The notes beneath the pieces are model-generated. The model was not told where the DNA came from and made no database searches. It worked only from the letters and a program-made list of their open reading frames with translations. DNA of 64,000 nt from contig NW_026943823.1 in the NCBI RefSeq assembly GCF_035594765.1, positions 11,036,001-11,100,000 on the forward strand, read 5' to 3'. Positions 56,222-56,354 of the stretch are shown here, one piece after another (positions within the stretch are counted from its first letter, which is position 1; the number at the start of each line of letters is the position of its first letter). The translations under genes were made by a program, and so were the position numbers. The DNA is from Anolis carolinensis (lineage: Eukaryota).

Positions 56222-56354
56222 GATGGAATCTGGCCACAGCAGGCGACATTCCTGCATCCTAGGAAGCAGAGCCTGGAAGAAAGATGGAGGAAAGAACTCA
56301 CAGGGGATAATGGGAGTGTGAGTCCCAACACATCTGGAGAGCACTGGGATGTGT
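56222..56354 (-). pseudogene. Inverted, degenerate copy of the TMLHE intron 1 end and exon 2 start
   Basis: Reverse complement aligns with 36376-36530, including TTCCAGGCTCTGCTTCCTAGGATG vs TTTCAGGCTCCGTTTCCTAGGATG. Confidence 0.75.

Follow-up and report, generated by a model that had tools for sequence, protein, structure and literature searches.

An inverted copy of the junction between an intron of TMLHE and its first coding exon lies behind the F8A (HAP40) gene of the lizard Anolis carolinensis, about 20 kb from its template. In our opinion, with a probability of roughly 0.7, it is a single old, locally templated inverted insertion, which was left as a patch by the repair of a DNA break and has been neutral since. 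Both loci belong to the window, i.e., the whole analysed stretch of 64,000 nucleotides of contig NW_026943823.1, and positions are those of the window unless stated otherwise. The copy is apparently undescribed, as no account of it was found in the literature searched on TMLHE together with F8A/HAP40, with SPRY3/DKC1 or with Anolis and lizards. If it is a neutral patch, it matters little, as one dated case of a local insertion made from a template, which might serve as a phylogenetic marker in lizards.

Extent and genomic setting of the copy

Self-BLAST of the window gave two collinear inverted matches, 36376-36446 against 56354-56286 (60/72, E 7e-13) and 36469-36516 against 56284-56237 (38/48, E 8e-6). 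A single local alignment of 36376-36516 with 56354-56237 is identical at 98 of 117 aligned columns (83.8%), with 25 gap columns in addition, and scores 108.5, as compared with 25.2 ± 3.4 (maximum 45.5) for 300 dinucleotide shuffles. The initial annotation had reported an inverted match of about 130 nt to the TMLHE acceptor region at 56222-56354. The match was confirmed when this entire stretch was aligned (105 identities in 131 columns, 80.2%), but its outermost part, 56222-56236, was given up, because it agrees at only 7 of 14 columns, and limits of 56237-56354 suit the copy better. Homology ends abruptly, being absent from the 40 bases ahead of the start and from everything past about 13 bases beyond the end. 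The exon part (16/22) is more diverged than the intron part (82/95). Both AGs of TMLHE (36479-80 and 36493-94), the ATG at 36496 and the peptides quoted earlier were read from the sequence exactly as claimed, and so was the position of the copy between the F8A stop codon, ending at 56158, and the first AATAAA, beginning at 56378. Neither copy is covered by any Rfam family.

Seven coding exons of TMLHE were mapped on the plus strand (36496-45450), and the reading frame is unbroken from the template through every one of them. A recognisable start was found in 78 of the 120 fetched TMLHE proteins, including 23 extended models, in 15 of which Arg precedes Met; this fits the order AG-G-ATG, and the conserved acceptor is thus probably the second AG. 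A simple donor scan of 301-3000 for exon 1 gave nothing, and the exon-2 peptide, used as the sole query, found no relatives. The pyrimidine tract of TMLHE contains a C-rich run of about 21 bases (within 36444-36467), which accounts for 21 of the 25 gap columns and is missing from the copy behind F8A; either it expanded after the duplication or it was lost in the copy. Another pyrimidine-rich AG, the third, is located at 36368-69; after it comes a frame that is free of stops and keeps the TMLHE phase, with an ATG at 36397 that would add 33 codons. A GTGAGT at 36428 also belongs to this stretch (36368-36495), which may be a candidate alternative 5' exon or an N-terminal extension of TMLHE. Upstream of the coding exons, self-BLAST found a pair of direct repeats of about 650 bases with 86% identity (19514-20166 and 30535-31185), probably a mobile element.

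Genome searches with either copy, which skip very common words, returned this pair alone, and no full third copy of the segment was found in the genome. A 24-mer from the acceptor had three genome matches at up to 2 mismatches, two of them being this pair, and a control had none. The inverted duplication linking TMLHE and F8A that was proposed earlier has therefore been borne out as a local, lineage-restricted duplicate of the acceptor and start, present twice genome-wide. Such duplicates are not rare, because 34 other short two-copy pairs were counted among the matches listed for the same 264 kb, their copy status being local and not genome-wide.

The gene order is Sprouty (SPRY3), TMLHE, a GPR34-like gene, F8A, a DKC1-like gene and, beyond it, a guanylate-kinase exon which we take to be MPP1. 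The Sprouty gene is on the minus strand, 15 kb to the left of the window, and the DKC1-like gene starts at about 58244 on the plus strand, with an exon at 62100. Rfam matches inside the latter gene included SNORD83 (two), SNORA36 (one) and SNORD17 (one); one stretch corresponds to 63525-63600 of the window, and the others are at 10-140, 1747-1993 and 4522-4598 of a further sequence (L017). In humans, SNORD83 and SNORD17 sit in other host genes.

The arrangement had been compared with the int22h repeats of human Xq28, which are associated with a partial TMLHE duplicate. This human duplicate involves the last exons of the gene, not the first coding exon. No kilobase-sized, near-identical repeat of the int22h type was found around F8A in 264 kb. 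According to the available text of PMC7725122 and PMC12382273, the two situations have in common that F8A adjoins the 3' end of TMLHE and that an inverted duplicate is involved. However, the int22h repeats (F8A1/2/3) duplicate F8A itself and have 9.5 kb with >99% identity (PMC12382273), whereas here F8A has one match in the genome, TMLHE is single and intact, and only 118 bases of TMLHE at 84% are concerned, so that the parallel was abandoned. The F8A protein length given for Anolis in the supplement of PMC7725122 is the same as that found here.

Table 1. Positions of the genes, copies and repeats discussed in the text (window coordinates).
Feature	Position	Strand	Basis
Template: 119 bases at the end of the intron ahead of TMLHE's first coding exon, plus the 22 bases that open this exon	36376..36516	+	sequence, alignment
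Decayed fragment of the same transposon in the TMLHE intron, more decayed than that in the copy	36388..36427	+	nhmmer E 0.87
TMLHE first coding exon, with the acceptor AG at 36493-94, then G, ATG 36496, donor GTAAGT at 36677; exon start inferred	36495..36676	+	sequence; match to squamate and turtle N-termini
Intronless GPR34-like receptor frame lying between TMLHE and F8A and facing the latter head to head; 376 codons from stop to stop	50320..51447	-	similarity
F8A/HAP40 single-exon coding sequence, 346 aa, one genome copy	55118..56158	+	55118-56155 matches human HAP40 (6ez8_B, E 3.9e-104)
CCACAG, left member of a putative target-site duplication; 3-base overlap with the homology end	56234..56239	+	sequence
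Inverted copy of TMLHE 36376-36516: intron end, AGs 56274-73 and 56260-59, ATG 56257-55, about 7 codons	56237..56354	-	self-BLAST and local alignment
Remnant of a hAT-type miniature transposon, decayed, within the copy	56304..56342	-	nhmmer E 0.003, profile built from five window copies
CCACAG, right member of a putative target-site duplication; separated from the homology start by 4 unmatched bases	56359..56364	+	sequence
Separate micro-insertion: 19 bases identical to a Penelope-like repeat (56381-56399) between two TAATAAAC repeats holding AATAAA 56378 and 56403	56377..56409	+	sequence

Direction, age and proposed mode of copying

The direction of copying was shown, by comparison of protein starts, to be from TMLHE to the F8A site: an M-W start is nearly universal among the fetched TMLHE proteins and is broken in the copy, which reads M-Q-E, and TMLHE is thus the donor. 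Copying from the F8A site into TMLHE was ruled out by the conserved TMLHE N-termini. The copy is decayed, with Trp replaced by Gln and Gly by Glu, and its frame on the minus strand has 38 codons. Codon 5 encodes Arg in the copy, in TMLHE of this species and in most other amniotes, and Gln in the seven squamate proteins shown; this single codon weakly suggests that the duplication took place after the split from Pogona.

The divergence between the copies (13 transitions and 6 transversions) corresponds to a K2P distance of 0.187 ± 0.046. With a rate of 0.0017 per site per million years, obtained from an anole path length of 0.71 over a root of 415 million years in the available text of PMC5798147 and not a rate of this lineage, the distance gives 55 million years with a range of 28-82, or up to 110 if one copy was fully constrained. 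Roughly, then, an age of about 30-80 million years may be inferred.

In the proposed scenario, a DNA break behind the F8A stop codon would have been repaired with the nearby TMLHE gene as a template, a polymerase or a reverse transcriptase copying TMLHE DNA or unspliced RNA into the site; mature mRNA would not serve, because the insert includes the intron. A staggered break would leave a 6-base direct repeat at both ends, and the copy would afterwards drift neutrally, decaying as a passenger, its neutrality being judged from 117 bases, with little power. The pair of CCACAG motifs near the ends of the copy weakly suggests an insertion, since 4.6% of 20,000 random placements of two such points had a 6-base repeat no more than 5 bases away from them. 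The preference for an insertion over the remnant of a larger duplication rests on this repeat, which was sought after the fact and has a chance of about 5%.

Templated insertions of 73-414 bases, including those with intronic templates, are a described class, at least in the available text of Onozawa and Aplan (PMC5110952). The copy resembles the TSI/TSIP considered there in being short (about 120 bases), in the intact donor, which is a unique locus, in a possible intronic template, and perhaps in its junctions, with few unmatched bases and possible microhomology. Here, 4 unmatched bases are found at one junction and 3 shared bases at the other, old junctions being eroded. The donors in the same text are distant loci, whereas in the present case the donor is 20 kb off on the same chromosome; furthermore, the insertion is old and apparently fixed, and it mixes a possible 6-base duplication (class 1, of which target-site duplications of at least 5 bases are a trait) with the lack of a poly(A) tail (class 2). 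As to the poly(A) tail with upstream AATAAA that is a trait of class 1, no A-tract was found at the TMLHE-sense 3' end near 56237.

Another origin, rather unlikely in our opinion, is that the copy is what remains of an inverted duplication of the TMLHE 5' region that was once larger, or the scar of a rearrangement with one end in the interval from F8A to DKC1, the greater part having been deleted later. In human Xq28, F8 and BRCC3 are found with the F8A-DKC1-MPP1 block in a compact arrangement, and the gene order described above is unlike the human one. Here, BRCC3-like and F8-like exons occupy contig positions 8334341-8419090, 2.6-2.7 Mb from the F8A-DKC1-MPP1 block on the same contig, so the wider region was rearranged in some lineage, with nothing found to connect this to the copied segment. 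A FUN14 search gave no match on this contig. Against such a remnant, no other TMLHE-like sequence was found in 56000-57460, nor did the genome yield another piece of TMLHE coding sequence, an insertion would better explain the repeat at both ends, and the adjacency of TMLHE and SPRY3 is common to guinea fowl and human according to the available text of PMC6579635 and PMC6591651. A simple inversion between the copies, of which the segment had been thought a possible breakpoint relic, would cut the first coding exon (exon 2). Yet this exon is intact and TMLHE points away from SPRY3, an argument which rests on the SPRY3 neighbourhood. A promoter-swapping inversion, by which TMLHE would once have been driven by the DKC1 promoter, was ruled out, as TMLHE is still beside SPRY3.

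The transposon fragment within the segment

The intron half of the segment resembles an arm of a palindromic family of about 135 bases, similar to the hAT-N1_AC/SPIN-type miniature hAT elements; the hAT-N1_AC terminal sequence opens some local members of this family, as judged from Table 1 of PMC3014272. Only about 40 decayed bases without a terminal repeat are present here, whereas the acceptor and ATG half is outside the family. A 20-mer from the intron half had 17 genome matches at up to 1 mismatch and a control had none; in the 4 of 15 other matches that were inspected, the similarity does not extend into the rest of the segment. The possibility, named in the initial annotation, that the whole segment is a dispersed repeat has thus been realised for these 40 or so repeat-like bases and not for the acceptor and ATG half, which is two-copy.

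In 11 of 48 family-conserved columns, both copies carry the same non-family base, and 33 of 40 core bases agree between the copies, the best of 35 family members reaching 65% and 72.5%. Because the copies share bases absent from the repeat family, it was shown by this comparison that a single duplication event made the pair; the intron-side 40 bases are, to judge by their sequence, an older dispersed-repeat relic copied along in that one duplication. Coincidence, that is, two independent transposon fragments joined to a chance likeness of pyrimidine-rich acceptor-like sequence, might be supported by the abundance of the 20-mer. However, the acceptor half is significant by itself (a score of 49.5 against a maximum of 33.5 over 578 tiles of the surrounding 264 kb), adjacent and collinear, the four other 20-mer matches inspected stop short of the rest of the segment, and there are the 11 shared non-family bases, so that this explanation has been largely refuted and its probability is close to nil.

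The transposon fragment might have taken a more active part. In a repeat-primed event, the fragment at the F8A site would have invaded the fragment of the TMLHE intron, synthesis continuing into the acceptor and ATG; as a variant, a hAT transposase would have made a local hop carrying the flanks. The copy starts about 12 bases from the fragment, and the fragment on the F8A side is nearer to the family than that on the TMLHE side, keeping the family base at 5 of the 7 columns where one copy matches the family (TMLHE at 2), a non-significant asymmetry. This explanation seems to us very unlikely, as shared non-family sequence flanks the fragment on both sides in both copies and the fragment has no intact terminal repeat. 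In addition, hAT duplications comprise 8 bases according to Table 1 of PMC3014272, against 6 here.

F8A transcript and its predicted pairing with TMLHE

Single contigs (55034-56780 and 55046-57249) from the two same-species runs examined, out of 14 that we guess to be RNA, bridge the F8A stop codon, the copy and both AATAAA without differences; the two runs belong to two studies, and contigs carry no strand or end information. Two runs of other organisms yielded no contig on F8A at 80% likeness, which tells nothing of those species. The earlier claim that the copy is inside the F8A transcript is therefore probably correct. As both genes are on the plus strand, the RNA of F8A can be expected to be antisense to the junction in TMLHE pre-mRNA, and it probably carries the copy as a passenger; within 56159-57249, the copy is the only long antisense match to the TMLHE span.

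If this complementarity had an effect, a protein-coding mRNA would gain control over the splicing of a neighbour via a 120-base accident. F8A RNA would then be a natural antisense element, as the initial annotation considered possible, masking the TMLHE acceptor and start codon and shifting the inclusion of the mitochondrial-targeting exon. According to the available text of PMC3565810, a human isoform without exon 2 has been reported and the loss of that exon abolishes mitochondrial TMLHE in humans. The predicted duplex of F8A and TMLHE RNA reaches -177.9 kcal/mol, and when G-U is allowed, 19 pairs follow one another without a break across the acceptor and the ATG; its longest Watson-Crick run has 14 pairs, and a perfect duplex would reach -372.6. 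In spite of the complementarity and the bridging contigs, we assign such a function a very low probability. In the test for pairing selection, done on 131 columns and of low power, 351 of 500 neutral simulations (70%) paired as strongly or more strongly, and 9 G-U-compatible changes were observed against 7.75 expected, so selection for antisense pairing was not supported. The opposite strands are predicted to form an equally strong duplex (-184.2), and the TMLHE span itself contains four inverted repeat pairs with stronger predicted pairing (-200 to -435). The exon part of the copy is more diverged than the intron part, the 21-base C-rich run of the TMLHE tract remains unpaired, and the two genes, 10 kb from each other, have no overlap. 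As far as the bases themselves can tell, the copy shows no sign of upkeep as a regulator.

Natural antisense transcripts masking splice sites are known, e.g., THRA/NR1D1 and ZEB2-AS1. Complementarity over a splice acceptor is what they have in common with the present case. They overlap their targets with perfect complementarity, whereas here we deal with a separate gene, whose pairing would have 16% mismatch and a bulge of 21 bases and bears no sign of having been maintained. A still bolder idea is that abundant F8A/HAP40 mRNA would work as a built-in splice-switching antisense RNA, tipping TMLHE toward skipping the mitochondrial-targeting exon and tying the expression of a huntingtin partner to carnitine synthesis; we regard it as slightly less probable again.

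No joint using the copied acceptors was found among the joints listed, which were crowded with repeats, and in the 400 bases that follow the copied AG, GTRAG occurs only once. Each of the two same-species runs also gave another contig, with a gap of 1 base at 56324 (depths of 22 and 207). It fits the TMLHE copy, which would mean intron sequence in a transcript, but also another member of the repeat family; as the stretch is repeat-like, this contig was dropped as proof of an exonic end of the TMLHE intron.

Besides the copy, the region behind F8A contains the micro-insertion listed in Table 1. The Penelope-like 19-mer has a TAATAAAC repeat on either side, and this insertion therefore probably created one of the two AATAAA. 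A longer Penelope-like copy is located at 3099-3276, and the same 19-mer ends there 87 bases after the element ATG and 31 bases before the +118 end. In the available text of PMC11167929, reverse transcription of a Penelope-like element starts at +111-118, with a second site 30-40 bases away and AT-rich targets, and the Penelope-like repeat of the window fits, by its sequence, the element described there.
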